From the NCBI RefSeq assembly GCF_028368995.1, contig NZ_JAQNDL010000003.1, forward strand, positions 2,400,001 through 2,464,000: a DNA stretch of 64,000 nt, in the 5' to 3' direction. Shown piece by piece: positions 1,626 to 63,833 of the stretch. The position numbers were made by a program, and so were the translations under genes. The notes under the pieces are model-generated. The model saw nothing but the letters and a program-made list of their open reading frames with translations, searched no databases and was not told the DNA's origin. The stretch's first letter is position 1. Every line of letters starts with the position of its first letter. Origin of the DNA: Nannocystis bainbridge (GTDB taxonomy: Bacteria; Myxococcota_A; Polyangia; Nannocystales; Nannocystaceae).

Positions 1626-2410
1626 GGCGACACCTTCTCGACCAAAAACGAGGACTGAGCCCAGCCCGCGGGCAACTGCAGCGGGCGCGTGGTGGCGTCG
1701 GTGAACGCCGCGATCGTCTTGAGCTCGGCGACCACCCGCGAGGCGTCGAGCGGCCCGTTGGCGGTCACGAACACGAACCGCTCGAAATTCGGGGCGGCGT
1801 CGAGCTCGTAAGCCTGGGCCAGCCGGACCGCGCCGCCCTGGCGCAGCGCCGTCGAACCGCCGGGCTCGCCCGGGAAATGCAGCGTGACCACGCCGGCGCC
1901 GTCGAGCGAGGCGACCACGCCGTGGGTCGCCCCGGCGGCGACGTAGCTGACCTGAAGCACATCCCCGGCGCCGGCCCGCGCCGGCGCCCGCAGCGGCTCG
2001 GCGACCTCGCCGACCTGACGGTGGATCACCAGGTGCGAGGCCAGGCCCTTGATCCGCACGCCGTCGCCGGCCTCCCCCTGGGACATGTCCCCGAGGACAG
2101 ATGGTTCGCCGCTCGGCGCTGCGGGATCGCCCGGGCGCAGCATCACGATCGCCACCGCCGCGGCGGCGACCGCCGTCGGCAGGCCGAACCACACCATGCG
2201 CTGGCGGTTGGCGCGGGCCTCGGCGATGCGCCGCCCGGCTCGCCGCTCGACCTCGGCGGCCACCGCCGCGGCCGGGTGTGCGGCCAGGATCGCCGCGTCG
2301 GAGGCCCGCAGCGCCGCCAGCTCGGCCTCGTCGACCACCCCCGCGCGCTCGCCCGCCGCGATCTGCTCGAGATGCAGCGCCGGCCGCTGCCTGGTGCCCT
2401 TGTCGCTCAT
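1622..2410 (-). CDS. Putative membrane-anchored anti-sigma / ActD-like protein
   Basis: MSDKGTRQ start overlaps the sigma-factor stop (ATGA); single TM segment (MVWFGLPTAVAAAAVAIVML); C-terminal beta-rich domain (GDVLQVSY...VVTLHFP...YELDAAPNFERFVFV). Confidence 0.7.
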   Translation of the reverse strand: MSDKGTRQRPALHLEQIAAGERAGVVDEAELAALRASDAAILAAHPAAAVAAEVERRAGRRIAEARANRQRMVWFGLPTAVAAAAVAIVMLRPGDPAAPSGEPSVLGDMSQGEAGDGVRIKGLASHLVIHRQVGEVAEPLRAPARAGAGDVLQVSYVAAGATHGVVASLDGAGVVTLHFPGEPGGSTALRQGGAVRLAQAYELDAAPNFERFVFVTANGPLDASRVVAELKTIAAFTDATTRPLQLPAGWAQSSFLVEKVSP

Positions 2411-2889
2411 GCGGCCCCCTCTCGCGCCATCACGCCGGCGCGCAGCGTCCGCAGCCGCTTGCGGACCCCCGAGACCGAGAGCCCGACGCTCTCGGCGACC
2501 TCCTCGAGCGTCATGCCGTCGACGAGGTGCATCACCGCCATCGTGCCCGTCGACACCGGCTCGCGCGCGAACAACTTGTCGAGCACGACCCGCGCGACCC
2601 CGCGGGCCTCGGTGTCGTCGAGCGCGGCGATCTCCATCAGCAGCTCCGACTGCGGGTCCTCGGGCCGCCGCTTGATCGAGCGCAGCTTGTTGAGGCACAC
2701 GTTGGTGGCGATCCGCCACAACAGGCTGCACGCGCCCTTGTCGACCAGGCGCTCGCGGTGCACCAGAAGTTGTACGAAGACATCGTGCATGGCATCCACC
2801 GCCTGCTGCTCGTCGCGCAGCAAGCTCCGGCAACGGCGCAGGACCATCGGTCCGTGGCGCTTGTAGGTGTCCTGGACGTCGATGGCCAT
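2407..2889 (-). CDS. ECF RNA polymerase sigma-70 factor
   Basis: Region 2 (DAMHDVF...LWRIATNVCLN) and region 4 HTH (GMTLEEVAESVGLSVSGVRKRL). Confidence 0.9.
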   Translation of the reverse strand: MAIDVQDTYKRHGPMVLRRCRSLLRDEQQAVDAMHDVFVQLLVHRERLVDKGACSLLWRIATNVCLNKLRSIKRRPEDPQSELLMEIAALDDTEARGVARVVLDKLFAREPVSTGTMAVMHLVDGMTLEEVAESVGLSVSGVRKRLRTLRAGVMAREGAA

Positions 2890-3145
2890 CAGCCCCCGCT
2901 CGCCTCGACCCTCAAACACCGCCCGCAGCTTTGCCTGTCACTGCATCGCCGAACTTTTTTTGCGCGCGAACCCGCACGACCGCCGCCCGCGCCTGCACGG
3001 TCGCTCAGGCGAGCCCCTGTGAGGGACCACCCAGCCCTCCCGGTCGCGCCGCGCGGCATGGCGGGATGATTGTCCAGGCGCACACCGCCTCGCAAGGGCG
3101 CCGCGGACGGTGACACTTCCGCGGCCCCGCGGTGTTCGAGGTCGC

Positions 3146-4477: not shown

Positions 4478-4490
4478 CTCCTTTCTAAAA

Positions 4491-4532
4491 TGTCCCCAAG
4501 AGCATGTCCTCAGCGACATGCTCCTTGGGGCA
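4491..4532. repeat. Tandem array of three 14-bp palindromic units (TGTCC-N4-GGACA family)
   Basis: tgtccccaagagca / tgtcctcagcgaca / tgctccttggggca; lies between convergent genes. Confidence 0.85.
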
Positions 4533-5972: not shown

Positions 5973-7283
5973 TCATCGCATCCGCTGCAGCTGGTACCGC
6001 AGCTGCCGCAGACCGCCGCGCATGCGGGCCCGCAGGTGCCCGAGGTTGCGCCGCGTCAGCAGCTCGCGCGGCCGCAGGTACACCTCGGCGTTGAACATCG
6101 ACAGCAAGATCCGGTGACGGCGCCAGTTCTTCGCCCCGCGCACCACCCGGAGCCGCGCCGACACCCCCAGCGTCTGCAGCCCGAACGGCTGCGTCAGCGC
6201 GAACAGCAGCGGCTGCCCGCACACCTCGACGTCGGCCGCCGCCCCGCGCACCACCTCGCAGCGCCCGCGCGCCAGGTCGAGGCGCAGCGTGACCTCGAGG
6301 TCGCGCACGTCGATCGTCACCGGAGCCAGCCACGCGCGCAGCAGCCACCTCGGGTAGTGCTCGGCCAGGCGGGTCGCCAGCGTCTGGGCCGCGGCGATCA
6401 GCGCCGGCAGCTCGACCGGCGTCGGCGGGTCGAGCGGGGCCGCGCTCGCGCGCGCGAACGCCTCGTCCCACAGCTTCAGCGCCGGCCGCGAGTCCCACGC
6501 CGCGCCGACCTCGTAGTCATCACCCGGCGCGATCACGTCGAGGCGCAGCCCGAGGTGCTCGAACGCCGCCGCCACGCGCCCTGGCGTGTTGGCGTACGCG
6601 TTCATGTACGCGTTGTCCTCGCACGAGAAGCGGACGAAGCTGGCGATCGGGATCGTCGTCTCGGCGCCGAGGTCGCGATGGTTGGCGATCATGCTGTCGA
6701 CGATCGCCCGCGCCTTTCGCGGCAGCCGCTCGTCACGGTCGGCCTCGCCGCCGTAGCCGGCCAGCGAGAACTGGTTCAGCACCACCTGCGCCGGCCCGAG
6801 GTCGCCGCGGATGATGCGGCAGTCACCGGCGGCGGCCTCGGCGTCGTTGACGTTCACGAGACATGTCCCATCGGCCATGACCGCGAGGACAGAGTCCATC
6901 TGCCCGACCTGATAGCAGTACACCTGCAGCCCCGGGCGCAGGTCGACCAGGGCCCGGTGCGGCAACAGGCGGACGTCGGCGAAGCCGAGGCGGGCGAACG
7001 CCTGCGGCATCTTGTCCGTCGGCATCTGCTGGAACAGCACCGTGACGCGGCGCTTGAACGCCGGCGGCAGGTCGCGCAGCGTCGGCAGGTGGAAGTGGTC
7101 GGGGTGCTCGTGCGAGACCCACAGATAATCGACCTGCTCGAGCCACGCCGCGTCCCACACCGGAGGCGTCACCAGCGACCACGAGTTATTAAAAACCTTG
7201 CCGCCGAGCCATGGGTCGGTCCAGATCGTCGCCCCCCCGGCCTCGATCAGCAGCGACGCGTGGGCCACCAGGCGCAGCTTCAT
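5973..7283 (-). CDS. MBL-fold metallo-hydrolase (UlaG / CMP-Neu5Ac hydroxylase-like)
   Basis: HASLLIE, TDPW, SHEHPDH, MDS and NVND motifs. Confidence 0.8.
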   Translation of the reverse strand: MKLRLVAHASLLIEAGGATIWTDPWLGGKVFNNSWSLVTPPVWDAAWLEQVDYLWVSHEHPDHFHLPTLRDLPPAFKRRVTVLFQQMPTDKMPQAFARLGFADVRLLPHRALVDLRPGLQVYCYQVGQMDSVLAVMADGTCLVNVNDAEAAAGDCRIIRGDLGPAQVVLNQFSLAGYGGEADRDERLPRKARAIVDSMIANHRDLGAETTIPIASFVRFSCEDNAYMNAYANTPGRVAAAFEHLGLRLDVIAPGDDYEVGAAWDSRPALKLWDEAFARASAAPLDPPTPVELPALIAAAQTLATRLAEHYPRWLLRAWLAPVTIDVRDLEVTLRLDLARGRCEVVRGAAADVEVCGQPLLFALTQPFGLQTLGVSARLRVVRGAKNWRRHRILLSMFNAEVYLRPRELLTRRNLGHLRARMRGGLRQLRYQLQRMR

Positions 7284-7430: not shown

Positions 7431-8078
7431 TCACCCGCCCAGATCGAGCTCGCCGAGGTGCTGCGTGGCGTTCTGGACCTGGATGTCCCATCGGCCATCC
7501 GCGCGGTGGCGCAGGCGATAGAGCCCGGCCAGCGACACCGGCAGCGCGATCGCCTCGGCCTGCGGCATGCCGGTGAGCGCCGCGATCACGGCCTTGATCA
7601 CGCCCTTGTGCAGCACCGCGACCACGCGCGGGCTCGCGGGCATGGCCAGGGTCCGGCGCGCGCCGGCCTGCACGCGGTCCCAGAACGCCTGCCGCGACTC
7701 GCCGCCGGGGTAGGTGAAGCCGAGCCCCTCGGCGAGGTAGCGGCCGTGGCCGGTGGGGTCGCGCTCGGCGACCTCGGCGAAGGTGAGGCCCTCCCACGCG
7801 CCGAAATCGACCTCGGCGAACTCGGGCACCACCGTCACCGGCGGGGGCGGCCGCTGACCGCCGGCGACCAGCGACGCCGCGGCCCGCGAGCGCTGCAGCG
7901 GCGACGCCAGCACCGCCGCGAAGGCGGGCTCGGCCGCCAGCGCGACCGCCACGCGCTCGATCTGCTGCAGCCCGAGCGACGACAGCGCCACGTCCGTGGC
8001 CCCGTGGAGGCGGATCGACGACTGGCCGTCGGTCTCGCCGTGGCGGACCAGCACGAGCTCGGCGGGGGCTGTCGACAT
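7431..8078 (-). CDS. Histidine phosphatase (phosphoglycerate mutase family)
   Basis: LVRHGET, SPLQR, EVDFGAWEG, GES and HKG motifs. Confidence 0.9.
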   Translation of the reverse strand: MSTAPAELVLVRHGETDGQSSIRLHGATDVALSSLGLQQIERVAVALAAEPAFAAVLASPLQRSRAAASLVAGGQRPPPPVTVVPEFAEVDFGAWEGLTFAEVAERDPTGHGRYLAEGLGFTYPGGESRQAFWDRVQAGARRTLAMPASPRVVAVLHKGVIKAVIAALTGMPQAEAIALPVSLAGLYRLRHRADGRWDIQVQNATQHLGELDLGG

Positions 8079-8913: not shown

Positions 8914-9223
8914 CGATCTGTCCCGCGGGACAGGTTGATTCGCCGGGGCCGCTGCGACCGATCCTCGGGTCATGGACCTCGGGACGACTCGCGTCCGCGA
9001 CGACCTGTCCTCCGGGACAAATCGCTAGCGCTTCGCGTGACCGGGCGGGCAGACTCGCGGTGACCTGTCCTTCGAGACACCTTGTCATCACGAGCGGTCC
9101 CAAGCGCCGGGCCGCGCGCGACCTGTCCCTCAGGTCAGATCATCGCCGAGCGCGCTCGCGGGTCCGCGGCCGGGCCCCGCCGCGCGCGGCACGTCGCCCA
9201 CGACCAACCTGTCCTTCGGGGCA
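8906..9223. repeat. Dispersed 14-bp palindromes plus a 29-bp inverted repeat
   Basis: Units at 8919 (tgtcccgcgggaca), 9006, 9066, 9124 and 9210; 8906-8934 and 9004-9032 are inverted copies (26/29). Confidence 0.8.
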
Positions 9224-12906: not shown

Positions 12907-14361
12907 ATGACTCTAGCCCCGTCCGCACGCCCCTTCCGACGCGCCTCCATCGGCAGGTGGTGGTCGTTCTGGGCCCTGCTCGTGGTCCTCTGCGGCGGTC
13001 TGGCCTCGCCCCTGGTGTCCGAGGCCGCGGCCGCGGGCAGCAAGAAGGGCGCGAGCAGCAGCAAGGGCAAGAAGAGCAGCAGCAGCAGCAAGGGCAAGAA
13101 GGGCAAGACCAGCAAGAAGCCGGCGGCCGCGAGGCCGGTGCGGCCGCTGCGACGCGACGTGGACGGCCCGCAGTCTGTCCCCGACGACAGCTTCGAGGAC
13201 ACCGACACCGACGGCGAGGGCGACCTCGAGGACGAGAGCGGCGAGAACGGCGACCCGGAGTCGGAGCTCGAGGCGATCGAGCGCGAGCTGCTGTCGCAGC
13301 CGGCGGGCCCCGAGCCGGAGATCGTATACGCCGAGGGGCCGCCTCCGCCCCCGCCCCCGCCCGTCAAGGCGCGCTCGCTCAAGCACCTGCTGATCCCCGG
13401 CGAGACGCTCGACGAGGTCGCCAAGCTGTATCAGGTCGAGGTCGGTGACCTCGCCAAGTGGAACGCCATCCGCGCGGGTGAGCCGATCCCGAAGAAGAAG
13501 AAGGACCTGCGGGTGATCACCACCCACACGCCGCCGCCGCGCGAGAAGCTCGAGCACGAGATCAAGCGCGGCGACACCTGGGAGGCGATCGCCGCCGAGT
13601 TCGGGGTCGAGGTCGCCAGGCTGCGCCAGCAGAACCCGCGCCTCGGCGACAAGCTGGCCCCCAAGCCGAAGCAGAAGCTCAAGGTCGTCGCCTGGAAGGA
13701 CCTCGACCTCACGCCCTCGGCCGGCCTCGGGACCAAGCTCGGACAGATCCGCGTGCGCGCCGGCGGCCTCAGCATCGGCAAGCCCAACCGCGGCAAGCTG
13801 GTCCGCGGCGTCGAACTGCCCGACCGCCCCGACCTCTACGTCAAGCGCAAGCCCGACGAGTCGTTCGCCTCGACCCACACGGTGATGCAGACGATGGCGG
13901 CGATCACCCGCTTCCGCCACGACAGCAACTTCAAGGGCCAGGTCGTGATCGGCGGGATGAGCCGGGCCCGCGGCGGCCGGTTCCGGCCCCACAAGTCGCA
14001 CCAGAGCGGCCGCGACGTCGACATCCGCCTGCCGGTGCTGCGCGCGGCCGAGGGCAAGCGCCACATCACCTCCGCCGACGTCGACTGGAAGGCGACCTGG
14101 CAGCTGATGCGCGCCTTCCTCGACACCGGCGAGGTCGAGTACATCTTCCTCGAGTTCGCGCTGCAGAAGCGGATCTACAAGGCCGCCCGCGAGTCCGGCG
14201 TGTCGCAGGAGCAGATCGACGCGTGGCTCGAGTGGCCGAAGAAGATCAAGGGCCGCAGCAACAAGCGCGTCCTCATCCGCCACGTCGAGGGCCACCGCAC
14301 GCACATGCACGTGCGCATCCGCTGCGGCCCGCAAGAGAAGCACTGCTACTCGTCGCGCTGA
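12907..14361 (+). CDS. LysM-containing penicillin-insensitive murein endopeptidase (MepA-like)
   Basis: Two LysM-like repeats (PGETLDEVAKLY, RGDTWEAIAAEFG); SIGKPNRGKL, HKSHQSGRDVD and HRTHMHVR. Start uncertain. Confidence 0.85.
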   Translation: MTLAPSARPFRRASIGRWWSFWALLVVLCGGLASPLVSEAAAAGSKKGASSSKGKKSSSSSKGKKGKTSKKPAAARPVRPLRRDVDGPQSVPDDSFEDTDTDGEGDLEDESGENGDPESELEAIERELLSQPAGPEPEIVYAEGPPPPPPPPVKARSLKHLLIPGETLDEVAKLYQVEVGDLAKWNAIRAGEPIPKKKKDLRVITTHTPPPREKLEHEIKRGDTWEAIAAEFGVEVARLRQQNPRLGDKLAPKPKQKLKVVAWKDLDLTPSAGLGTKLGQIRVRAGGLSIGKPNRGKLVRGVELPDRPDLYVKRKPDESFASTHTVMQTMAAITRFRHDSNFKGQVVIGGMSRARGGRFRPHKSHQSGRDVDIRLPVLRAAEGKRHITSADVDWKATWQLMRAFLDTGEVEYIFLEFALQKRIYKAARESGVSQEQIDAWLEWPKKIKGRSNKRVLIRHVEGHRTHMHVRIRCGPQEKHCYSSR

Positions 14362-14375: not shown

Positions 14376-14837
14376 ATGTCCCTCGAAGCCCTGTGTCAGC
14401 GCTGCGCGCTCTGTTGCGACGGCAACCTGTTCGCGACCGTCCCGCTGCGCGCGGACGAGGTCGAGGCCGTGCGTCGACATGGCCTCGTCGTCCTCGAGCG
14501 CGCCGCCGGCCCGGTGATGAGCCAGCCGTGCGCCGGCCTGCAGGCCGAGAGCTGCACGCTCTACCCCGATCGGCCGGCGCCGTGCCGCAGCTACGCGTGC
14601 ATGCTGTACGCCGCGCTGGCGGAGGGCGAGGTCGGGCTCGCCGACGCACTCGCGGTGGTCGCCGAGGCCCGGGCCCGGCTGATCGCCGTCGCGAGCGCCC
14701 TGCCCGGCGACGGGCCGGCGCTGGTGCGGGCGCGGGCCGCGGCGCGCGACGGTCACCTGTCCCCGGAGACACACGCGCTGGTGGTCCGCGCGAGCGAATT
14801 CCTCGAGCGACGTTTTCGCGGCCATACGCGCCGCTGA
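14376..14837 (+). CDS. YkgJ-family cysteine cluster protein
   Basis: CQRCALCC, PC-x6-CTLYPDRPAPCRSYAC. Confidence 0.85.
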   Translation: MSLEALCQRCALCCDGNLFATVPLRADEVEAVRRHGLVVLERAAGPVMSQPCAGLQAESCTLYPDRPAPCRSYACMLYAALAEGEVGLADALAVVAEARARLIAVASALPGDGPALVRARAAARDGHLSPETHALVVRASEFLERRFRGHTRR

Positions 14838-16078: not shown

Positions 16079-16753
16079 ATGTCCGAGACGATGAAGGCCC
16101 CGGGCTGGGCCGCGATCGACGCCGCCTGCCAGCGGCTCTACGCGCGCCAGGTCCCGCACCAGTACACCAGCAAGACCGCGTACGAGCTCGAGTCGTCGAG
16201 CCCGTTGCCGGCGATCACCGTGTGGGAGGGCCAGCGCCCGCTCCACTGGCACTACGTCACCTACGGCCTGACCGAGCTGTTCGAGAAGACATCCCACGAC
16301 CCGAACGTGTCCGGCTTCGGCTTCGAGCTGACGATGCGCGTGCCGCGGGCCGAGGGTGAGGCCGAGCCGCCGGCGTGGCCGCTGCGCACGCTGCAGAGCC
16401 TCGGCCGCTACGTGCTCGGCAGCCGCAAGGGCTTCGACACCGGCCACCGCGCCGACCTCGGCGGCCCCATCGCCGCCAGCGCGCCCACCGAGCTGACCGC
16501 CCTCGTCTGCGTGCCCGACCCACTGCTCGGCAAGATCACCGGCCCCTACGGCTCGCTGCTGTTCCTCCAGGTCATCGGCGTCACCGCCGACGAGCTGGCG
16601 GCGATGGAGCGCCTCGACCACGAGGGCGTGGTCCACATGATGGGCGAGCTCGATTTCCACGGCCTGACGGACCTGTCCCGCGGGTCATGGCTGAAGAACC
16701 CGCAGAAGGCCCCGGTGGTCCGCCGCTACCAGCTCGGCATCCTCCGCGACTGA
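16079..16753 (+). CDS. Suppressor-of-fused (SUFU) domain protein
   Basis: PGWAAID, HWHYVTYGLTEL, SGFGFELT, FLQVIGVT. Confidence 0.88.
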   Translation: MSETMKAPGWAAIDAACQRLYARQVPHQYTSKTAYELESSSPLPAITVWEGQRPLHWHYVTYGLTELFEKTSHDPNVSGFGFELTMRVPRAEGEAEPPAWPLRTLQSLGRYVLGSRKGFDTGHRADLGGPIAASAPTELTALVCVPDPLLGKITGPYGSLLFLQVIGVTADELAAMERLDHEGVVHMMGELDFHGLTDLSRGSWLKNPQKAPVVRRYQLGILRD

Positions 16754-16765
16754 GCCGTTCGGACA

Positions 16766-16835
16766 TGTCCTCTGCGACATGTCCTTTGCGCAATGCCCCG
16801 AAGGACATGTCCTCCTCGACATGTCCTTTCGCGCA
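16766..16835. repeat. Tandem array of five 14-bp palindromic units
   Basis: tgtcctctgcgaca / tgtcctttgcgcaa / tgccccgaaggaca / tgtcctcctcgaca / tgtcctttcgcgca; convergent junction. Confidence 0.9.
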
Positions 16836-16846
16836 TCTCCGCCCGC

Positions 16847-18010
16847 TCACGGCTCGGGCGGGTTGACGCACGCCACGAACTCGCCGCAGCTCTCGATCTT
16901 CATGCACCGGCGCATCTGCGGCCGGTTCCAGTCGGTCACCGCGAACTCGCACATGCGCTGGCACGAGCGCACGTAGCGGTCGCGCGCCTTGCCCTCCGGC
17001 GGGGCCACGTTGTTGGCGTCGGCCTCGCATTGCAGCTGGCGCTCGCACAGCTGCTGGCACAGGGCGGCCTCGTCGTTGACCGGCGCGGGCGCGCTGGTCG
17101 GCGTCGTCGTCGCCGGGGTCGGGCTGGTCGACGCCGGCGGCGCGCCGGGTGACGGCCGGGGGGACACGGCAACCGCGACGCAGGTGCCATCTGGCCTTCG
17201 GGACATGCCCACAGGGCAGGGTTCGGCCGCGCAGGTGTGGCCGTCCCAGCGGCTGCCGCTCGGGCAGGCCGTCGACTGCGCCACCGCCAGCCCGGGCAGC
17301 GCGCTCAGCTCGATGCGGATCAGCGCCCCGCAGCCCTCCGGCGCCCGCGTGTCCGCCGTGGTCGCCGCGTCGCAGCTGGCGGGCTGGCCGTCGGCCGACA
17401 GCGTCTCGCGCTCGGCCGACGAGCCGACGCCGGCGCCGATCTGGTTGAAGCCGCCGCCGACCTTGATCTCGCCCGCGCCGCCGGCGAAGAAGTGGAACGC
17501 GCCGACCTGCACGCCGGTGATGATGTGCGTGGCCGCGTCGCAGTCGCCCGCCAGCAGGTCGCGCCCGGGCCGGCCCGCCGGCGCCTCGAGCATGCCGACC
17601 AGCGCGATCTCGACGTCGAGCTCACCCGAGCGCGCCAGCTTGCTCTCGAGCCGCGCCGCGCCGAGCGGGAGCTGGGCGTAGAGCTCGTCGGCGCTGCGGA
17701 TCTTGACGCGGTCGTTCTTGCGGGTGAGGCCGAGGTAGGCGTACTGGCCCTGGACGGCGCACTGGCGCTGGATGGCGATCTCGCACCCGTCGACGCGCAC
17801 GGCCACGAGCCCGCGCTTGAGCCGGGCTTCGAGCGAGGCCCGCTCGGCGGCCGCCCACTCGACCACCAGCGGGTGCGAGGCGGCTCCGCCGACGACGCAC
17901 TTGCCCTGCCCGGGGATCTCGAGCTCCGGCGGCTTCGCCAACCGCTCGGCCGGACTGCGACACGAGCCGAGCGCCAACACGACCGCGAACCAACCGCCGG
18001 GGCGAATCAC
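16847..18010 (-). CDS. Hypothetical Cys-rich lipoprotein
   Basis: Lipobox LGSC; globular N-terminal domain, Pro/Thr linker, C-terminal Cys-rich module. Confidence 0.75.
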   Translation of the reverse strand: MIRPGGWFAVVLALGSCRSPAERLAKPPELEIPGQGKCVVGGAASHPLVVEWAAAERASLEARLKRGLVAVRVDGCEIAIQRQCAVQGQYAYLGLTRKNDRVKIRSADELYAQLPLGAARLESKLARSGELDVEIALVGMLEAPAGRPGRDLLAGDCDAATHIITGVQVGAFHFFAGGAGEIKVGGGFNQIGAGVGSSAERETLSADGQPASCDAATTADTRAPEGCGALIRIELSALPGLAVAQSTACPSGSRWDGHTCAAEPCPVGMSRRPDGTCVAVAVSPRPSPGAPPASTSPTPATTTPTSAPAPVNDEAALCQQLCERQLQCEADANNVAPPEGKARDRYVRSCQRMCEFAVTDWNRPQMRRCMKIESCGEFVACVNPPEP

Positions 18011-21019: not shown

Positions 21020-21105
21020 TGTTCTGGAGGACATGCCCGCACGGGCATGTCCTCTTCGACATTTCTCGAATGACATGTCCTCGGGGACATGCCCCGAAAA
21101 GGACA
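21020..21105. repeat. Tandem array of six 14-bp palindromic units
   Basis: tgttctggaggaca / tgcccgcacgggca / tgtcctcttcgaca / tttctcgaatgaca / tgtcctcggggaca / tgccccgaaaaggaca (last unit 16 bp); convergent junction. Confidence 0.9.
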
Positions 21106-25901: not shown

Positions 25902-26567
25902 TCACCGGCCGAGCAGGTGATCGAGCATCACCCGGGCCTCGGCGCTGGTGGTGACGGCCCCGAGAGTGATCTCGAGCTCGCCGCCGGTCAGCGGCTCGCG
26001 CATCACCGGCGCCATCAAGACCTCGTCGTCCTGGACGACGGCCAGGCGCCGACCCACCTGTGCAGCAGTGAGGCTGGCGAGGCGCCCGACGTCCTCGCTC
26101 AACAGGCGCACGCGGATCCGCTGCCGACCCTCAGCATCCTGGCTGAGCAGCGCGGAGCCCAGCTTGCGCAAGGCGAGGCCGCCGGCCTCGACGCAGTGCA
26201 TGCGCCAGTAGGTCCGCCCGTCGTCGCGCAGGCGCTCGTAGCCGAACGCATGACCGGCGGGCGGCGCGAGCTCGGGGTGGGTGCGGATGTAGTCCTCGAG
26301 GACATGTTTCTCGGGACCTGTCACAAAGGTCTCGTGGACCGCGGGCCCCTGACCGTCGCCTACGAGGGGGACCTCGCCGACGTCGAGCCCCGCCTGCGGA
26401 TCGGCGCGGACGGCCGCGACGACCCGCTGCAGCGCGCCCCGCGGATCGTCGACCGGGGTCAGCACGAGCGGCCGCTTGAGCTCGAGCTCGGGCGTCGTCG
26501 CGGTGCAGCCGGGCACGAAGGCCGCAGGTGCGAGCGCGAACGCGAGGACGATCAGCGAGCGGAGCAT
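25902..26567 (-). CDS. Lipoprotein with SecDF P1-head-like domain
   Basis: Signal ending VPGC; LTAAQVGRRLAVVQDDEVLMAPVMREPLTGGELEI resembles the SecD P1 head. Confidence 0.7.
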   Translation of the reverse strand: MLRSLIVLAFALAPAAFVPGCTATTPELELKRPLVLTPVDDPRGALQRVVAAVRADPQAGLDVGEVPLVGDGQGPAVHETFVTGPEKHVLEDYIRTHPELAPPAGHAFGYERLRDDGRTYWRMHCVEAGGLALRKLGSALLSQDAEGRQRIRVRLLSEDVGRLASLTAAQVGRRLAVVQDDEVLMAPVMREPLTGGELEITLGAVTTSAEARVMLDHLLGR

Positions 26568-34432: not shown

Positions 34433-35017
34433 TCACGGTAGCCGTGCGAGATCGGCGGGCCGGTCGAGGTTGTCGAGCACGGCGGGATCGTCGACCGCCA
34501 GCGCGCTGCGCATGCCGCTGACCGCCGGACGTCCCAGCAGGTCGCGCGGGCTGGCGTCCGGCCCCAGCGCCAGCAGCTCGGGCACCAGCGCCGCCGGCCA
34601 CACCAGCGGATGGCCGCGGCGACCGCCGTGGCTCGGCTGCCAGACCTGCGTGGGCGCCGCGCGGAAGGCCGCCGCCAGCGCCGCGACGGTCTCGGGCCGC
34701 ACGTGCGGGCGGTCGACCGTCAGCACCAGCGCGGCGCAGCCGGGGGCCAGCATCTCGAGCTCCTGCAGGCCGCGGCGCAGGCTGTCCATCTGTCCTTGCG
34801 GCCATGTCGGATTGGTCACCTTGATCGCGGACCCGAGGTCCTCGGCGGGGATGACGACCGCGCCCTCGACGACGACGATCGGGCTGGCGTCGGCCGCCTC
34901 GGCCTGGGCCACGGCGTGGCGCACGAAGGCCCGCCCGCGCCACTCGAGCAGCGCCTTGGGCTGGCCCATGCGCTCGCCGGCGCCGGCCGCGAGGACGATC
35001 GCGCCGAGCGCGGTCAC
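34433..35017 (-). CDS. MocA/YgfJ-like nucleotidyltransferase (molybdenum cofactor cytidylyltransferase family)
   Basis: IVLAAGAGERMGQPKALL, GQMDSL, VDRP, GHP, NLD; GTG start inferred. Confidence 0.85.
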   Translation of the reverse strand: MTALGAIVLAAGAGERMGQPKALLEWRGRAFVRHAVAQAEAADASPIVVVEGAVVIPAEDLGSAIKVTNPTWPQGQMDSLRRGLQELEMLAPGCAALVLTVDRPHVRPETVAALAAAFRAAPTQVWQPSHGGRRGHPLVWPAALVPELLALGPDASPRDLLGRPAVSGMRSALAVDDPAVLDNLDRPADLARLP

Positions 35018-35170: not shown

Positions 35171-35240
35171 AGCGCGAAGGGACATGTCCGAACGAACATG
35201 CCCTCTCGCACATGTCCTCGCGGACATGCTCGAAAGGGCA
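35171..35240. repeat. Tandem array of five 14-bp palindromic units
   Basis: agcgcgaagggaca / tgtccgaacgaaca / tgccctctcgcaca / tgtcctcgcggaca / tgctcgaaagggca; between co-directional genes. Confidence 0.88.
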
Positions 35241-44445: not shown

Positions 44446-44543
44446 CGTCTGTCTCGACATGTCGATGTGGATATGTCCATGACGACATGTCCAATTCGAC
44501 ATGTTTTTAAAGACATTTCCCGAGGGGCATGTCCGAAGGGACT
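44446..44543. repeat. Tandem array of seven 14-bp palindromic units
   Basis: CATG-like junctions at 44458, 44472, 44486, 44500, 44514 and 44528; e.g. tgtccatgacgaca, tgtccaattcgaca, tgtttttaaagaca; convergent junction. Confidence 0.9.
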
Positions 44544-45544: not shown

Positions 45545-45841
45545 GAGGCTGGAGGATAGCTGCTCCCGCCAGGCCGCATGACGGGGCCCCGGCCCGCCCG
45601 GCCCCTGAGGGACATCACGCCCGCCGCGCGCGCGAGCCCGTGGACGTGGTTTCACCGCGACGCAGGCCCGAGCCGCGGGGGCGATCGCCGCGACTCACCG
45701 CCGGCGCCGCCACCTCCGGCCATGACGCGGCGGATGTCCTCCCGCGAGCCGTGACATGGCCCGAAGGACATGTCCCGCCCCCGGCGGCCCTTGACGGCGC
45801 GCTCGATGGGGCCAGCGGGCCGCAGAACCATGGCCCGCGGC

Positions 45842-47701: not shown

Positions 47702-47785
47702 GCGGCGGCGTTTCTATTTTTATTAAAGCTGCGTTACCTGGGGGGCGCCAGCGCGCCAGCGCGCCGGGCGCAGATCGCTGGACCA

Positions 47786-47855
47786 TGTTCTTTCAGACAT
47801 GCCCTCGCGGACATGCTCCATCGGACATGCCCTCACAGACATGTCCGAATCGCCA
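47786..47855. repeat. Tandem array of five 14-bp palindromic units
   Basis: tgttctttcagaca / tgccctcgcggaca / tgctccatcggaca / tgccctcacagaca / tgtccgaatcgcca; convergent junction. Confidence 0.9.
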
Positions 47856-51773: not shown

Positions 51774-51848
51774 TGACCTTCGGGACATGCCCTCCGGGGC
51801 ATGTCCCTCCCGACATGTAAAAAGGGACATGCTCCGCAGAGCATGTCC
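51774..51848. repeat. Tandem array of five and a half 14-bp palindromic units
   Basis: tgaccttcgggaca / tgccctccggggca / tgtccctcccgaca / tgtaaaaagggaca / tgctccgcagagca / tgtcc; convergent junction. Confidence 0.9.
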
Positions 51849-51867
51849 CTTTTTCTTTAGCCCGCCG

Positions 51868-57140: not shown

Positions 57141-59120
57141 GTGCGCACGCCGTTTTCGTCCTCGTCGCTCATGCTGTCGACGGCCCTGATGCTGGCGCCA
57201 GGCTGCACACGGCCCGTCGCATCGACGACCGCGGCGCCTGCGGAGCGAGCTGATGCGTCTGCCCCGACGACTGCGACGTGGACGCCCGACCGCGCCCGTC
57301 TGCAAGCGGACATCGCTGCGCTCGCGCGCGACGAGATGCGGGGCCGCTTCACCTTGAGTCCCGAGCTCGCTCAGGCCGCGGAGTACTTGGCGCAGCGGCA
57401 CCAGGAGCTCGGCCTCGAGCCGGTTGCGGGCGATTCGCTCCTGGCCAACTTTTCGCTTTCCGTCGGCGTCCGTGCGCGTGAGCCTGTGAGCTTGCAGCTC
57501 GTCCGCGGCGCGCGGGCGACGTCGGTCGCGAGCGGCGAGTTTTCGATCTCGCCGCAGACGGCGAGCGGCGAGGTGCAGGGAGCTGCCGTGTTCGTCGGCT
57601 ACGCGGCCGCCTCCGAAGTCACGCCCGGCGACGACGACGCGGCCGCGCCGATCTACGACGACCTCGCCGGCCTCGACCTCAAGGGGAAGATCGCGGTCGT
57701 GCTGCTCGACGCTCCGGGGCGGCCCGACACAGTCACCTTCTTTCGCAGGCTTCAGCGCGAAGCGGGCGATTTCGCGGCAGCGGCCGCCCCGCTCAAGCAG
57801 AGCGGCGACGCGGCCGGCTTGCGCGCGCTGCACGAGCGCACCCGCGGGCGCGTGATCGCCATCCTCCAGCGGTTCATGCCCGAAGCTGACCTGAAGGACA
57901 TGTGGCCCCTGCCCGCCGATCCGCTGACGGTCGAGCTCGATCTGCAGGCGCTCGTCGGCCCGGTCATGCGCGAGGCCGGCAAGCGCAAGGGCCCGCAGTT
58001 CGGCATGGGCGCGGGATCGCTGCGGACCAAGGTCGAGCGTCTGACCAAGGCGGGCGCCGTCGCGGTGATCGCCGTACGCGGGCCTCGGAGTTTCCTCGAC
58101 GCGGAAGAGCGCGAGGCGGACGCGTTCGCGCCGCTGCAGCGGGAGGACGGCGTGGTCGGCGAGCCGTTCGCGCTGCCGGTGGTGCAGATGAAGTGGAAGG
58201 CGGCCGACAGGCTGCTGCGCGTCGGCAAGGCCAAGCAGAAGATCTCCGCGGTGCAGGAGGGGATCGACACCAAGCTCGCGCCGCTCTCGGGGGACATCCC
58301 CGGGGTCGAGCTGAAGTTGTCGGCCAGCGTCGAGCCGATCCAGGTCGAGGTCCCGAACGTGCTGGCGAAGATCTCCGGCACCGACCTCCGCGACGAGATC
58401 GTCGTGCTCGGCGCGCACTACGATCACATCGGCGTCGTCGGCCGCGGCGAGTGCAGCGAGGCGCGCAAGGACGACGTCGTCGACGGCATCTGCAACGGGG
58501 CCGACGACAACGCCAGCGGCACGGCGATGCTGCTCGAGCTGGCGCGGCACTTCCGCGAGCAGCGGCCGCGGCGCACCGTCGTGTTCGCCCACTTCGCCGG
58601 CGAGGAGCTGGGGCTGCTCGGCTCCAAGGCGCTGGCGGAGCGGCCGCCGTTTGCGCTCGACAAGGTCGTCGCCATGGTCAACCTCGACATGATCGGCCGA
58701 CTCGGACCGAAGGGCCTGGCCGTCGGCGGCCTCGTCTCTTCCGACGCCTGGATGCCGCTGCTCGACCGCCTCGGCACCGCCGGCCTCTCGGTGCTCTACG
58801 AGGCCAGCGTCGCCACGCGCAGCGACCACGCCAGCTTCTACAAGAAGAGCCTGCCGGTGCTGTTCTTCTTCACGGGCACCCACGCCGACTACCACCGGCC
58901 GGGCGACCACGCCGACAAGATCAACTACGACGGCCTGGTGGCGATCGGCACCCTCGTCGGCGGGGTCGCGCGCGCGGTCGCCGACGGCTTGCCCGTGCCG
59001 TACAAAGCCCCGCCCGAGGGTGGGGGCCTCGCCTCCGGCTTGCCCGGGTCGAACCCCGACACCGTCGTCAAGCGGGTCCAGGGCACCTCGACCCCGGTCA
59101 CGGCCCCCGTCGCGGAGTGA
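57141..59120 (+). CDS. M28-family metallopeptidase with PA domain, probable lipoprotein
   Basis: APGC lipobox; GAHYDH, NGADDNASG, GEELGLLGS, NLDMIG, SDH, DYH. Confidence 0.92.
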   Translation: MRTPFSSSSLMLSTALMLAPGCTRPVASTTAAPAERADASAPTTATWTPDRARLQADIAALARDEMRGRFTLSPELAQAAEYLAQRHQELGLEPVAGDSLLANFSLSVGVRAREPVSLQLVRGARATSVASGEFSISPQTASGEVQGAAVFVGYAAASEVTPGDDDAAAPIYDDLAGLDLKGKIAVVLLDAPGRPDTVTFFRRLQREAGDFAAAAAPLKQSGDAAGLRALHERTRGRVIAILQRFMPEADLKDMWPLPADPLTVELDLQALVGPVMREAGKRKGPQFGMGAGSLRTKVERLTKAGAVAVIAVRGPRSFLDAEEREADAFAPLQREDGVVGEPFALPVVQMKWKAADRLLRVGKAKQKISAVQEGIDTKLAPLSGDIPGVELKLSASVEPIQVEVPNVLAKISGTDLRDEIVVLGAHYDHIGVVGRGECSEARKDDVVDGICNGADDNASGTAMLLELARHFREQRPRRTVVFAHFAGEELGLLGSKALAERPPFALDKVVAMVNLDMIGRLGPKGLAVGGLVSSDAWMPLLDRLGTAGLSVLYEASVATRSDHASFYKKSLPVLFFFTGTHADYHRPGDHADKINYDGLVAIGTLVGGVARAVADGLPVPYKAPPEGGGLASGLPGSNPDTVVKRVQGTSTPVTAPVAE

Positions 59121-60721
59121 TGACCGTGCCCTCTGCCCCCCAGCGGGTTCGCGTCGACCTCCACCCCGACGCCCTCCTCGACCCCGCCGCCCTGCGCACC
59201 GCCGCCGCCCGCGCGGCCGGCCTGCGCGAGGCCGAGGTCCGCCACGTCGAGGTCGCCCACCGCTCGATCGACGCCCGCCGCGGCCGCGTCCGCGTCCACG
59301 TCGAGCTCGTCGTGCATGTCGGCAAGGACATGCCCGAAGCGCCATGTTACTTGCCACATGTCCTACCGAACATGTCCCAGGAGCCAGCCGTCGTCATCGT
59401 CGGCGCCGGGCCGGCGGGGCTGTTCTGCGCCTGGGGCCTGGCGCGCGCCGGCGTGCGCGCGGTCGTGCTCGAGCGCGGGCGCGACGTGCGGGCGCGGCGG
59501 CACGACCTCGCCGGGCTGAGCCAGCGCGGCGAGCTCGACCCCGAGAGCAACTACTGCTTCGGCGAGGGCGGCGCCGGCACCTACTCCGACGGCAAGCTCT
59601 ATACTCGCGCGACCAAGCGCGGGCCGGTAGATCTGGTCCTGCAGGCCTTCGCCGGCTACGGCGCGCCTGCGGAGATCCTCGTCGACGCCCGGCCGCACAT
59701 CGGCACCAACCGGCTGCCGCGGGTGATCACCGCCATGCGCGAGCACCTCATCGGCGCCGGCGTGGTGGTCCGCTTCGAGGCCCGCGCCGACGCCCTGGTC
59801 GTGCACGACGGCGCGGCCGCGGGCGTGCGCCTGCGCGACGGCGAGGTCGTGCCGGCCCGCGCCGTCGTCGTCGCGCCCGGCCACTCGGCCCGCGACGTCC
59901 AGGCCTGGCTGCGCGCGGCCGGGGTCCAGCTGTCCTTCAAGTCGTTCGCGCTCGGCGTCCGCATCGAGCACCCGCAGGCGCTCGTCGACCGCCTGCAGTA
60001 CGGCGCGCTCGCCGGTCACCCGGCGCTCGGGGCCGCCTCTTACCGCCTCGTCGAGCAGACCAGCGCGGGCGCGGCCTTCTCGTTCTGCATGTGCCCCGGC
60101 GGCTACATCGTGCCCGCGGCCACCGACCCTGGCATGCAGGTCGTCAACGGCATGAGCCCGCACAGCCGGCGCGGCCTGTTCGCCAACTCGGGGCTCGTCA
60201 CCGAGGTCGGCCCGCAGCACCTCGCCGCCGCCGGCCTGTCGCCCGCCGACCCGCTCGCCGGCGTCGAGTATCAGTCGCGCTTCGAGGCCGAGGCCTACCG
60301 CGCCGGCGGTGGGGCCTTCGTCGCCCCGGCCCAGCGCCTCGCCGACTTCGTCGCCGGCGCCCTCTCGCCCGAGCTGCCGCCGACCAGCTATCACCGCGGC
60401 CTCCAGCCGGCCCGCCTCGACCGGCTGCTCGGCCCGCTCGGCCCGCCGCTCCAAGCCGCGCTGCAGGCCCTCGGCGCGCGCATGCCGGGCTTCCTCGGCG
60501 ACGACGCGATCGCCGTGGGTGTCGAGAGCCGCACCAGCTGCCCGGTCCGCATCGACCGCGACGGCGAGACCCTCGAGTCGCCGAGCACCCCGCACCTCTA
60601 CCCGTGCGGCGAGGGAGCGGGATTCGCCGGCGGCATCGTCTCCGCCGCGCTCGACGGCCTCCGCGTCGCGGTCGCCATCGCCCGTCGCCTCGGCGCCCCG
60701 CACGAGCGGATTACGAGCTGA
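59120..60721 (+). CDS. FAD-dependent oxidoreductase (uncharacterised dehydrogenase family)
   Basis: VGAGPAG, FGEGGAGTYSDGKL, PHIGT, GHSARD, FCMCPGG, GEGAGFAGGIVSAA; TGATG coupling to the peptidase. Confidence 0.9.
   Translation: MTVPSAPQRVRVDLHPDALLDPAALRTAAARAAGLREAEVRHVEVAHRSIDARRGRVRVHVELVVHVGKDMPEAPCYLPHVLPNMSQEPAVVIVGAGPAGLFCAWGLARAGVRAVVLERGRDVRARRHDLAGLSQRGELDPESNYCFGEGGAGTYSDGKLYTRATKRGPVDLVLQAFAGYGAPAEILVDARPHIGTNRLPRVITAMREHLIGAGVVVRFEARADALVVHDGAAAGVRLRDGEVVPARAVVVAPGHSARDVQAWLRAAGVQLSFKSFALGVRIEHPQALVDRLQYGALAGHPALGAASYRLVEQTSAGAAFSFCMCPGGYIVPAATDPGMQVVNGMSPHSRRGLFANSGLVTEVGPQHLAAAGLSPADPLAGVEYQSRFEAEAYRAGGGAFVAPAQRLADFVAGALSPELPPTSYHRGLQPARLDRLLGPLGPPLQAALQALGARMPGFLGDDAIAVGVESRTSCPVRIDRDGETLESPSTPHLYPCGEGAGFAGGIVSAALDGLRVAVAIARRLGAPHERITS
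59317..59386. repeat. Five 14-bp units embedded inside the oxidoreductase CDS
   Basis: tgtcggcaaggaca / tgcccgaagcgcca / tgttacttgccaca / tgtcctaccgaaca / tgtcccaggagcca. Confidence 0.82.
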
Positions 60722-60809
60722 CCTTCAGGACAGGCCCCGCGCGTCGGGCGTCTGCGTGACGTTTTTCACTCCTACACCCAGCGTGGGAGGACTGTCTTCA
60801 CGCGAGCGC

Positions 60810-62022: not shown

Positions 62023-62106
62023 CGGCACTCGGGACATGCTCGAACGAGCATGTCCCGAACGACATGTCTTGAGTGACATGCCCCGACGGGCATGTCACTT
62101 CAGACA
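62023..62106. repeat. Tandem array of six 14-bp palindromic units
   Basis: cggcactcgggaca / tgctcgaacgagca / tgtcccgaacgaca / tgtcttgagtgaca / tgccccgacgggca / tgtcacttcagaca; fills the convergent intergenic gap. Confidence 0.92.
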
Positions 62107-62108: not shown

Positions 62109-62906
62109 TCAGGCCGCGCCGAGCAGCGCCCCGCGCTCGGCCAGGTCGGCGAAGTAGCCGGCCATCGCCGCCAGGAGCTCGTCGTCCAGCGCCACCCCGA
62201 GCTCCGCGCACGCGCCCTGCAGGGCGCCCTGCAGCGGCTCTCCGGCCAGCAGTCGCTCCGTCACCGCCGCCGCCCGCGGCGTCAGCTCGAGCGTCTTGAC
62301 CTGATGGTCGCTCCGATCGCGGTACTGCAGCAGCGCCGTCGCCTCGGCCGGCGGCGCCTCTGTCGCGCTCGCGCGGTGGACCGCCCAGCGGTAGCGGCGG
62401 AGCCGGACCGTGCCATCGAACTGTACCGGCCCGTCGAGCGCCAGCGGCTTGCCGCTCGCGGCCTCCCCGCCGGCCGGCAGGTTGCCGAGCTCGGCATCCG
62501 ACCACTCGTGCAGCGCCAGCTCGAGCAGATAATCCGGCAGCGTCGTGTCGACCGCCCACCGCGGCCGGGCCCATCTTAAAAACTCGCCCGTCACCCGCCA
62601 GAAGTACGGGGCCACCGGCGCCGCCTCGGCCACGAACTGGGCGATCTCCAGCCGCAGCCGCAGTCGGCCGAGCCGCGTCGCCGTGTTCGGCAAGAAGTCC
62701 TCCACCGCCCCGCGCAGCCGCCCGTGGACCATCGTGCGGTAGATCGCCAGCCGCTCGGCCGCCGCTTCCGGCAACGCGACCAGCGCCTCGGCCGGCACCC
62801 CGTGGCCGGCCAAAAATCCCTGCACGTCGGCCTTCACCGCTGCCGGCGCCTCGAGCTCGATCACGCTGGCGGCGAACGCCCGGATCCACGCCTCCTCGCC
62901 GCTCAT
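62109..62906 (-). CDS. DUF2063-like partner protein of DUF692
   Basis: RLAIYRTMV...FLP...PYF...EF...YLLELALHEW; ATGA overlap with the DUF692 gene. Confidence 0.8.
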   Translation of the reverse strand: MSGEEAWIRAFAASVIELEAPAAVKADVQGFLAGHGVPAEALVALPEAAAERLAIYRTMVHGRLRGAVEDFLPNTATRLGRLRLRLEIAQFVAEAAPVAPYFWRVTGEFLRWARPRWAVDTTLPDYLLELALHEWSDAELGNLPAGGEAASGKPLALDGPVQFDGTVRLRRYRWAVHRASATEAPPAEATALLQYRDRSDHQVKTLELTPRAAAVTERLLAGEPLQGALQGACAELGVALDDELLAAMAGYFADLAERGALLGAA

Positions 62907-63796
62907 GCCGCCGCTCCTGCCGCGTGGCGGGCCAGCGCCGCCTGGTACACCGCGTCGACGCGGTCGCGCTCGGCCAGCAGCTCGGCCAGCGGCGGGATGT
63001 TCTCGTCGCGCTCGAGCAGGACCGGCAGCGCACCTGTCCTTTCGATCACCCACGCCAGCAGCGCGTCGACCTCGCTGCGAACCGGCGCCCCGTGGGTGTC
63101 GATGATCAGGTCGCGGCGCTCGTCGTCCCAGAACTCGTGACCGGCCACGTGCAGCTGGACCACCCGATCGAGCGGGACTCGGGCCAACCACTCGAGCGGG
63201 TCGAAGCCGAAGTTGCTCGCGTTGACGAACACATTGTTGACGTCGAGCAGCAGCCCGCAGTCGGCCCGCTCGAGCACCTCGACCACGAACGCCGCCTCGT
63301 CGAGCGGCGCCCCCCCGAGCGGCAGGTAGTAGCTGATGTTCTCGACCAGCATCGGCCGCTCCAGCCGCTCCGACACCTCGCGCACGCGGGCCGCCACGCG
63401 CCTGGCCGACGCCGTCGTCCACGGCAGCGGCAGCAGGTCGTGCAGCATCTTGCCGTCGTGGCCCGAGAAGCACAGGTGGTCCGAGTGCCACGGCGACCGC
63501 AGGCCGGCGTCGAGGAACCCGCGCAGGCCCGCCAAGAATTCCGCGTCGAGCGGATCGAGCCCGCCGAGCGACAGCGACAGCCCGTGCGAAAGGATCGGGA
63601 ACCGCTCCGCCACGCTCGCCAGGCGGGCCGGTCGGCTGCCGCCGCGCGCCACGTAGTTGTCCGGTGAGACCTCCCAGAACGGCACCCGCCCGTCGGCCGC
63701 CCCGCGATCGACCTCCGCGAGGAACGGCCCGCGCAGCCCGAGGCCGACCCCGGTGGGCACCGCGGCGCGCGCGGATATACCTGCTCGAAAAGACAT
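62903..63796 (-). CDS. DUF692 multinuclear non-heme iron oxidative enzyme (MNIO)
   Basis: GLGLR, EVSPDNY, HGLSLSLG, SDHLC, HDLLP, ENISYY, LLDVNN, HVAGH, IDTH, LERD. Start may be GTG near 63760. Confidence 0.93.
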   Translation of the reverse strand: MSFRAGISARAAVPTGVGLGLRGPFLAEVDRGAADGRVPFWEVSPDNYVARGGSRPARLASVAERFPILSHGLSLSLGGLDPLDAEFLAGLRGFLDAGLRSPWHSDHLCFSGHDGKMLHDLLPLPWTTASARRVAARVREVSERLERPMLVENISYYLPLGGAPLDEAAFVVEVLERADCGLLLDVNNVFVNASNFGFDPLEWLARVPLDRVVQLHVAGHEFWDDERRDLIIDTHGAPVRSEVDALLAWVIERTGALPVLLERDENIPPLAELLAERDRVDAVYQAALARHAAGAAA

Positions 63797-63833
63797 GTCC
63801 GAAGAAACAGTGTGGGGTCTCGGCCGACCCCGC

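Follow-up and report, generated by a model that had tools for sequence, protein, structure and literature searches.

A hyperabundant 14-bp interrupted palindrome in genes and in phased intergenic arrays of Nannocystis

The stretch of DNA analysed here, called the window, comprises 64,000 nucleotides of the Nannocystis bainbridge genome (G000:C2:2400001-2464000) and is rich in copies of the palindrome TGTCC-N4-GGACA, a 14-bp unit with ten specified bases and a free four-base centre. It holds 47 sites with at most one mismatch, compared with 1.6 expected (100 dinucleotide shuffles, largest count 5). The genome as a whole (G000; 11.05 Mb on five contigs, 71-72% G+C, 90.5% complete) was compared with relatives including G001, G003, G005, G007 and G010, with the distant congener G009 and with G011 of the sister genus. 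A Pfam match was found for 15 of the 18 window open reading frames (ORFs) with sites. The coding units of the window are listed below, with the strand of the ORF in parentheses.

2086..2099: exact unit in ORF 1622-2410 (-), an ORF without a Pfam match
6864..6891: in-register pair of one-mismatch units in ORF 5973-7283 (-), not within the Lactamase_B match; G010 and G005 conserve it
7484..7497: one-mismatch unit in the His_Phos_1 gene 7431-8078 (-)
9210..9223: one-mismatch unit in the RNase H gene 9130-9690 (-), within the C-terminal tail
13176..13189: one-mismatch unit in ORF 12982-14361 (+); specific to G000, with 4-5 mismatches in five of five relatives, and gapped in one alignment
14758..14771: one-mismatch unit in ORF 14376-14837 (+)
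16674..16687: one-mismatch unit close to the 3' end of ORF 16079-16753 (+)
17192..17205: one-mismatch unit in ORF 16847-17941 (-)
26291..26304: one-mismatch unit in ORF 25902-26576 (-); same sequence in all five close relatives
28378..28405: in-register pair in ORF 27652-29607 (-), in the linker following the kinase domain; the homologous position in G009 holds an exact unit
31814..31827: one-mismatch unit in ORF 29822-33388 (-), with codons CGA, GGG and ACA; G009 lacks the unit, without an indel
34791..34818: pair of units in register in the MobA-like NTP-transferase gene 34433-35017 (-); G009 shares one of them
35816..35829: one-mismatch unit in ORF 35271-37109 (-), made by G->P and M->V; G009 lacks it
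40142..40155: exact unit in the linker between the transmembrane and nucleotide-binding domains of the ABC transporter gene 39174-41006 (+); codons CTA CCT GTC CCG ACG GAC AGC
42301..42328: unit and junction in gene 40999-42858 (+), within its ABC_tran domain; restricted to the six-species clade
57887..57900: one-mismatch unit in the peptidase M28 gene 57336-59120 (+), upstream of the domain; identical in all relatives
59317..59386: three units, at 59317, 59359 and 59373, within the N-terminal portion of ORF 59117-60721 (+)
60719..60732: unit with one mismatch, across the stop codon of ORF 59117-60721 (+)

An earlier note on this DNA had listed 26 units, placing them in or at the ends of coding sequences (CDSs) apart from one intergenic copy at 45757. 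All 26 were recovered at their positions. Two match the palindrome exactly (2086, 40142), 13 carry one mismatch (6864, 7484, 13176, 14758, 17192, 26291, 28392, 34791, 35816, 42301, 45757, 57887, 60719), six carry two, four carry three (9435, 26305, 35802, 63782) and one carries four (17206). By our gene calls, 45757 is indeed intergenic; the pair 63782/63796, which had been taken as coding, is intergenic too, and the unit at 60719 is at the end of a CDS in the sense that it straddles the stop codon. The caution that some degenerate hits may be chance was well placed. The two-mismatch class is not enriched within CDSs, so isolated listed units with two to four mismatches are not separable from chance; 11 units are individually indistinguishable from it, in-register neighbours excepted, and the units at 28378, 34805 and 26305 are exempt because they lie in register beside a better unit. 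Six in-CDS one-mismatch sites were absent from that list (6878, 9210, 16674, 31814, 59317 and 59359).

The motif excess is real and far beyond chance. Across G000, TGTCC and GGACA occur 1987 times at a spacing of four bases, compared with about 10 expected, and 0-16 times at each of the remaining spacings between 0 and 12. One-mismatch copies number 4258 (104-404 for eight control patterns) and two-mismatch copies 7530 (2435-6298 for control patterns), and about 6000 sites have at most one mismatch. In a ranking of all 5-N4-5 inverted repeats, TGTCC-N4-GGACA came first, by far the most exceptional. Its over-representation, in coding and non-coding DNA, is 30-fold to over 100-fold. Units are often flanked as CA|TG...CA|TG; the junction of tandem units, GGACATGTCC, occurs 956 times versus 0-86 for eight other 10-base palindromes, and CATG-N10-CATG occurs 3736 times versus 66-298 at other spacings. 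Past about 3 bases on each side of the unit no sequence conservation was detected in G000, and no larger element. Exact copies occur on all five contigs at 151-225 per Mb. Their spacing showed no regularity in a gap-distribution test, with a coefficient of variation (CV) of inter-locus gaps of 1.20 and 3.4% of gaps above 10 kb versus 2.3% for an exponential distribution.

The motif is restricted to Nannocystis. A 19-base form was found in each of the ten further genomes from this genus, 1 to 223 times per genome, with fewer matches in incomplete metagenome-assembled genomes (MAGs). Outside the genus, 19 of 20 genomes, eight of the 20 from the same family, lack this form and one has a single match. 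Among the matches listed from a species-level genome collection, there were at least 78 stretches, 64 of them titled Nannocystis, nine from one Nannocystaceae MAG, two from one Myxococcales MAG and three unrelated single hits; the listed loci align to G000 at up to 94.7% identity. Per 100 kb sampled, G009 has 12 exact copies and G011 none. An analogous "dialect" motif of the sister genus was not seen in 100 kb of G011, which is a small sample. A different repeat, the 10-mer GGGGGGGGGG, is present in 85 copies in G009:C2:608001-708000 (L124-L128); this may be a real poly-G tract or an artefact from the assembly or polishing of this MAG. No published description of the motif or of Nannocystis repeats was found in open-access PMC and bioRxiv texts, supplements excluded.

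The commonest form of the motif is the 14-bp-phased array at 3' gene ends, which the earlier note omitted. Spacers 3' of genes often consist wholly of units in strict 14-bp register, and the longest chain has 11 units. The intergenic copies of the window are as follows; z is the score of the predicted RNA fold.

16752..16849: array of about six units in 14-bp register that fills a convergent spacer; z -7.6
21020..21100: array between convergent genes; z -6.2
35171..35240: array between co-directional genes
44446..44543: array between convergent genes; z -7.4
45757..45770: single one-mismatch intergenic unit, retained in three of four aligned relatives
47772..47855: array between convergent genes; z -1.8, the sole array without an unusually good fold
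51774..51850: array in register in six of six species, with an A5-hairpin-T5 arrangement; z -8.1 and -7.7 on the two strands
62025..62106: array between convergent genes; z -9.5

The density of sites depends on the orientation of the flanking genes. Among spacers of 20-1500 bp, and counting sites with at most one mismatch, convergent spacers hold 5.59 sites/kb (a site in 56% of 1286), co-directional spacers 1.93 sites/kb (25% of 3727) and divergent spacers 0.72 sites/kb (16% of 1426). Intergenic density is about 8-fold that of CDSs, which hold about 0.27 sites/kb (2498 sites with at most one mismatch). Arrays turn over fast between species that are about 91% identical, such that 83 of 98 non-coding sites are unalignable in at least four relatives. 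Spacer lengths vary widely among species, and five of 55 non-zero differences are multiples of 14 (the 21 of 40 spacers that could be anchored in any relative were compared). The phased 3' arrays add a facet resembling repetitive extragenic palindromes (REPs) to the earlier inference of a motif like HIP1 or uptake sequences.

Several other features lie in or near these spacers. The variant unit TGTCTCTTCGGACA is found in four identical copies with similar short flanks (18306, 18344, 46811 and 46884, within 18303-18363 and 46809-46897), and these may represent a minor sub-family. At 46608-46777, in a long spacer upstream of ORF 47072-47701, a 64-65-bp direct repeat is present three times, with a 22-nt inverted repeat (46611-46632 / 46638-46659); its sequence shows no relation to the 14-bp unit. 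The 103-bp spacer at 21006-21108 corresponds to about 1.8-1.9 kb in G010, G001, G003 and G007, and positions 1-18400 of the window have no syntenic counterpart in G001, G003 and G007, while G010 and G005 align from about 4580 onward; both are local differences in gene content. In four sets of soil-metagenome contigs, short fragments mostly end beside arrays, a weak and unreliable observation. A search for RNA runs from pure cultures found none. Elsewhere in the window, the ORF at 62903-63760 has a strong match to MbnB/TglH/ChrH, enzymes that modify precursors of ribosomally synthesized and post-translationally modified peptides (E 7.5e-90).

Coding copies were counted against gene calls from our own script, which combines a codon log-odds score with greedy choice and gave 8015 genes at 83% coding; these calls are crude. 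The 1987 exact copies divide into 1216 intergenic (61%), 757 in CDSs (38%) and 14 on a boundary. Ten synonymous-codon shuffles of all genes gave only 15-34 exact copies, so the null expectation that the earlier note had set against its own claim, a frequency equal to that of codon-shuffled genes, is refuted. One-mismatch copies within CDSs are also in excess (1741 versus 372-422 in the same shuffles), and two-mismatch copies are not (4075 versus 4539-4707). All three reading frames are occupied. The use of uncommon codons and the pairing of units in 14-bp register in genes of both strands, both noticed earlier in the window, hold for the genome: codons that end within the arms have A or T as the third base in 29% of cases versus 6% genome-wide (third-position G+C, 0.94 overall), and a neighbour with at most three mismatches lies at +14 or -14 of 12% of in-CDS exact sites versus 0.44% for background. 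The motif arms hold 845 of 3546 ACA codons, a quarter of the total.

The motif also leaves its mark on the proteome. The peptide pattern.V[PLHQR].D[IMTNKSR] is observed 1558 times, compared with 1079-1198 in residue-shuffled proteins, and 429 motif sites lie in the corresponding frame. For [LMV]S.[RGW]T the figures are 593, 258-293 and 264, and for CP.G[HQ] they are 148, 10-19 and 64. Since the excess of motif-encoded peptides is about equal to the number of motif sites, amino acid sequences have been changed. The least-used frame (64 of 757) is the one that demands two rare codons and a cysteine. Two loci in called genes, G000:C3:1347891-1348044 and G000:C3:1816596-1816721, contain three-unit blocks (42 bp, 14 residues) repeated three times, and are in-frame coding tandem repeats made of 14-bp units.

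Orthologues show how the coding copies came about. No indels were found at the 12 window sites examined in codon alignments with close relatives, G009 and G011, and among 24 segment comparisons, all 19 that gave a match were free of gaps. The site at 42301 reads GAC TGT CTC CGG GGA CAT GTC in six close species, whereas four distant congeners and G011 have non-motif codons, such as GAC GCC CTC CGC CGC CAC ATC in G009. The change involves about seven bases in 19, three of them altering an amino acid, and all are toward the motif. At 40142, CCC->CCT, Ala->Asp and a different Ser codon turned an L-P-V-P-T stretch that was already there into the exact unit. Among 78 in-CDS sites of G000 with at least four relatives aligned (39 further sites with fewer were set aside), 40 have at most one mismatch in all relatives, 36 are mixed, two are found in G000 only and none is gapped. 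Outgroup synteny covers only three window genes and thus gives the outgroup state for just two sites. These alignments show that coding copies arise by clustered point substitutions, including amino acid changes, and not by insertion. The earlier note had left synonymous change and insertion for orthologues to decide between; substitution it is, without insertion, and the writing is not mainly synonymous.

Copies within genes lie where the protein sequence is less constrained. The 45 nt on each side of in-CDS sites diverge more at codon positions 1 and 2 than other coding DNA, both against G010 (8.4% versus 6.1%) and against G003 (11.3% versus 8.1%), and this lower conservation is significant (p=4e-9). 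In the Pfam-annotated genes of the window, three of 13 in-CDS loci fall within a matched domain. Residence in the genome matters as well. Genes shared in synteny with at least three relatives have 0.505 sites/kb (91 sites, 22 of them exact, in 151 genes and 180 kb), and genes missing at the syntenic place have 0.182 sites/kb (eight sites, none exact, in 40 genes and 44 kb; p=0.002, with ten intermediate genes left out). In-CDS sites are neither nearer to arrays nor farther from them than random CDS positions (median 1835 versus 1798 bp). Six of the 14 longest motif deserts were sampled, and they include a ribosomal-protein/rpoC/EF-G/EF-Tu operon, a TcA-like island of lower G+C, a transposase region and a sugar-nucleotide cluster. 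The ribosomal-protein/EF-Tu/EF-G/rpoC region (L132, G000:C2:2106401-2126400) belongs to a 24.7-kb stretch without a site of at most one mismatch, coding or intergenic. The TcA-like ORF (L131:3360-12467, G000:C2:2195660-2204767) encodes 3036 residues with TcA_TcB_BD, ABC_toxin_N and Neuraminidase-like domains and sits in a motif-free stretch of 32.5 kb with a G+C of 0.661.

The arrays can fold, and their arms were examined for covariation. Six of the seven window arrays fold as RNA at z -6.2 to -9.5, with stems of 11-16 bp formed by neighbouring arms. The array at 51774 looks like a bidirectional intrinsic terminator. Genome-wide, a T4 or A4 run lies within 8 nt of six of 110 long motif hairpins, and an intrinsic terminator was rejected as the general identity of the motif, with the 51774 array as one clear case. 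Arms within a unit show no covariation (mutual information 0.007-0.02), and no compensatory change was seen in 869 in-register triples, in which alternative Watson-Crick pairs have ratios of 0.94-1.09 with one of 1.42. Compensatory-looking examples at window arrays are therefore only anecdotal. The N4 centres of units k-1 and k+1 share a mean of 1.19 complementary positions versus 1.08, a small effect. A structured RNA family was likewise rejected, as there was no Rfam match in the window and no covariation in the 869 triples. At unit junctions in these triples, arm variants anti-correlate (complementary pairs U1[11]-U2[2], 261 versus 357 expected), and ACATGC/GCATGT are found in preference to ACATGT and GCATGC, the perfect hexamer palindromes; one possible cause is that long perfect palindromes, or a restriction site, are avoided.

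The sequence profile of the unit and its rate of change speak of recognition and, at most, of weak maintenance. Tolerance within the half-site is uneven, with G1 almost invariant and T2 loose; variation is lowest at the CA|TG ends, and the centre prefers YYRR. This unevenness appears to fit recognition by a symmetric protein better than a conserved fold. Comparisons were limited to the window versus G005 and to pairs at least 88% identical. In these, arms change about half as fast as centres, both in CDSs (30/538 versus 25/219, p=0.008) and in non-coding DNA (80/462 versus 65/181, p=1e-6), and they also change half as fast as the local flanks. Differences at third codon positions within arms amount to 13 of 207, compared with 13.6% overall (p=0.001). 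Maintenance of the motif is weak at most, given the small numbers and relatives that are not independent. Arm conservation can be reconciled with loss rates on terminal branches that are like those of controls (see below) if the sites lie in fast-evolving segments.

The excess of the motif, its restriction to one genus, the substitution origin of its coding copies, its effect on the proteome and its gradients with constraint and residence are shown, as is a sequence-specific, genus-specific process acting at the DNA level. The earlier note had likewise seen a motif shaped at the DNA level across the chromosome and had denied a local regulon operator, in agreement with its presence on five of five contigs, in three reading frames and in both coding and intergenic DNA of one genus. 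The explanation that we rank first, with a probability of roughly 0.35, is a recognition motif that accumulates by DNA-level drive, as uptake signal sequences do. TGTCC-N4-GGACA would be the recognition sequence of a Nannocystis-specific, probably dimeric, DNA-handling activity. Variants closer to the motif would preferentially be passed on, for example by biased uptake and recombination of conspecific DNA, and the motif would accumulate wherever sequence is free to vary. Unconstrained 3' spacers would become saturated as 14-bp-phased arrays, with array hairpins and occasional terminator-like structures as a by-product, and coding DNA would be rewritten by point substitutions, synonymous if possible and non-synonymous at weakly constrained residues. 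Uptake and recombination bias as the driver and a dimeric protein as the reader of the motif are what we infer. The fuller proposal, of a Nannocystis self-DNA recognition system in which an interrupted palindrome read by a dimer is spread by molecular drive, about 2000 coding positions are rewritten and 3' arrays are filled, seems rather doubtful to us as a whole.

Uptake signal sequences (USS) of the Pasteurellaceae and DNA uptake sequences (DUS) of the Neisseriaceae resemble the Nannocystis motif in that a short clade-specific motif is present in thousands of copies, made by point substitution. USS and DUS are enriched after genes as hairpin-forming pairs. The parts of Findlay & Redfield 2009 available to us describe uptake sequences as doubling the encoded tripeptides, lying at poorly conserved residues and being absent from genes without homologues; the motif in Nannocystis likewise roughly doubles encoded peptides, lies at poorly conserved residues and is scarce in genes without homologues. 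From the same parts, 34.5% of the uptake sequences of Neisseria meningitidis lie in ORFs, with a range of 34.5-65%, compared with 38% in Nannocystis. The coding copies are thus uptake-signal-like in all tested respects, and their density follows the order of expected constraint, which is why drive is ranked first. Unlike USS and DUS, the Nannocystis motif is an interrupted palindrome with a free four-base centre and 14-bp-phased arrays of up to 11 units, and recent Nannocystis lineages lose more than they gain. The combination of an interrupted palindrome, phased arrays and amino-acid-altering coding copies is unusual. ComEC, DprA and a ComEA-like ORF are present in G000, and the same searches match 10-11 of 14 control genomes, so they do not discriminate.

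A number of points weigh against drive of this kind. Natural transformation of Nannocystis was not documented in the literature found, and we know of no strict 14-bp-phase tandem arrays or interrupted palindrome in USS or DUS. Gains and losses were counted on the terminal branches of a six-species tree (six ungapped genomes, at least four of the five others agreeing; 156,680 alignment columns). Within CDSs, 32 losses from the class with at most one mismatch stand against 8 gains, loss rates match those of 29 permuted-arm controls (30/212 versus 69/557, p=0.55) and gain rates are only 1.4-2.5 times those of the controls (p=0.04 and 0.05); an active drive at equilibrium does not clearly emerge from these counts. 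Further limits are the crude gene calls and the non-independence of the relatives. In addition, all six species have arrays at corresponding spacers although these turn over rapidly, an observation that a local function would account for as well.

Such a function is the core of the REP-like reading. It holds that the motif is a protein-bound element resembling REPs and bacterial interspersed mosaic elements (BIMEs, REPINs), with a local role at 3' gene ends that depends on a dimeric nucleoid or termination-associated protein, on an RNA fold that would halt transcription or shield 3' ends, or on both, and with coding copies as weakly selected extra sites or spill-over of selection by the same binder. 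REPs are extragenic, 20-40 nt long and usually accompanied by a gene for a REP-associated tyrosine transposase (RAYT). Like REPs, the motif is a species- or genus-specific imperfect palindrome found after genes, especially convergent ones (56% of convergent versus 16% of divergent spacers), and capable of forming hairpins. Its arrays stay at the same spacers in six species while sequence and length turn over, six of seven fold well, the A5-stem-T5 arrangement at 51774 is kept in all six species, and the arms are twice as conserved as the centre with a half-site profile that resembles protein recognition. The phased arrays, their persistence at spacers and the recent excess of losses place this reading next; we take it as a live possibility on which we would not wager. 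The motif is, however, a 14-bp unit and not extragenic, since 757 of 1987 exact copies (38%) lie in called CDSs, with amino acid changes that REPs are not known to make. The Y1/RAYT transposase family PF01797 has no match in the 90.5%-complete G000, and the same search matches six of 14 control genomes. Nor do the folds help, as stems show no compensatory changes in 869 triples, T4/A4 runs are rare beside long hairpins, and single units in genes, with 5-bp stems, are unable to terminate transcription. In-CDS sites also do not gather near arrays. Protein recognition of repeated short units has a parallel in operator arrays: the met-boxes of MetJ and the iterons of omega and ParR are head-to-tail palindromic or heptad units bound by side-by-side dimers. 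The Nannocystis half-site profile is similarly protein-recognition-like, but those systems have a handful of sites per regulon or plasmid, compared with about 6000 genome-wide, including in genes, in Nannocystis.

An unlikely alternative is a HIP1-like palindrome kept for a chromosome-wide role, either in nucleoid structure or in methylation-dependent marking of self-DNA, possibly with a methyltransferase that reads part of the motif, such as the invariant CATG junction. The CA|TG ends vary least of all positions, and both motifs are palindromic, clade-restricted, hyperabundant and found in coding and non-coding DNA. In contrast to HIP1, the Nannocystis motif has an intergenic density about 8-fold that of coding DNA, a strong 3'-intergenic bias and tandem arrays, and HIP1 (GCGATCGC) of cyanobacteria is a contiguous 8-mer. 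HIP1 is described in 15- to 300-fold excess and as conserved in the parts of Xu et al. 2018 available to us, one to two orders of magnitude over codon-aware expectation as in Nannocystis, and as periodically spaced and linked to methyltransferases (Xu et al. 2018; Elhai 2015). Even or periodic spacing was not found in Nannocystis at the scale tested. A miniature mobile element or a slippage-amplified repeat that inserts 14-bp units would account for array lengths that differ greatly among species about 91% identical, for the many unalignable non-coding sites and for the few genes with 42-bp coding repeats. For coding copies this origin is largely refuted by the absence of indels at all 78 in-CDS sites and of gaps in the 19 matching segment comparisons, and a 14-bp insert would shift the frame. 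Length differences are seldom multiples of 14, nothing is conserved beyond about 3 flanking bases and no RAYT was found, and we consider such an element very improbable. Chance, codon bias or selection for a peptide motif has a probability close to nil, being refuted by the spacing controls, the 5-N4-5 ranking and the codon and dinucleotide shuffles, and by the occurrence of the motif outside genes as well as in all three frames and on either strand.

USS, DUS, HIP1 and REPs are among the clearest cases of a DNA-level process that overrides the optimization of codons and even of proteins. Few clades are known to have hyperabundant motifs, and the cause has been settled in fewer. Nannocystis, a myxobacterial genus, is culturable and non-pathogenic, has several complete genomes, gives a very clean signal and brings REP-like arrays and USS-like coding copies together. 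The questions made testable here are whether uptake in myxobacteria is sequence-biased, which protein reads the motif, and how far protein sequence is ceded to a DNA-level drive. We know of no uptake-signal-type system outside the Pasteurellaceae and Neisseriaceae; the self-DNA recognition reading, if true, would give the first such system in the Myxococcota, with a new type of receptor. The motif could also matter for the design of transforming DNA for Nannocystis, a producer of natural products.

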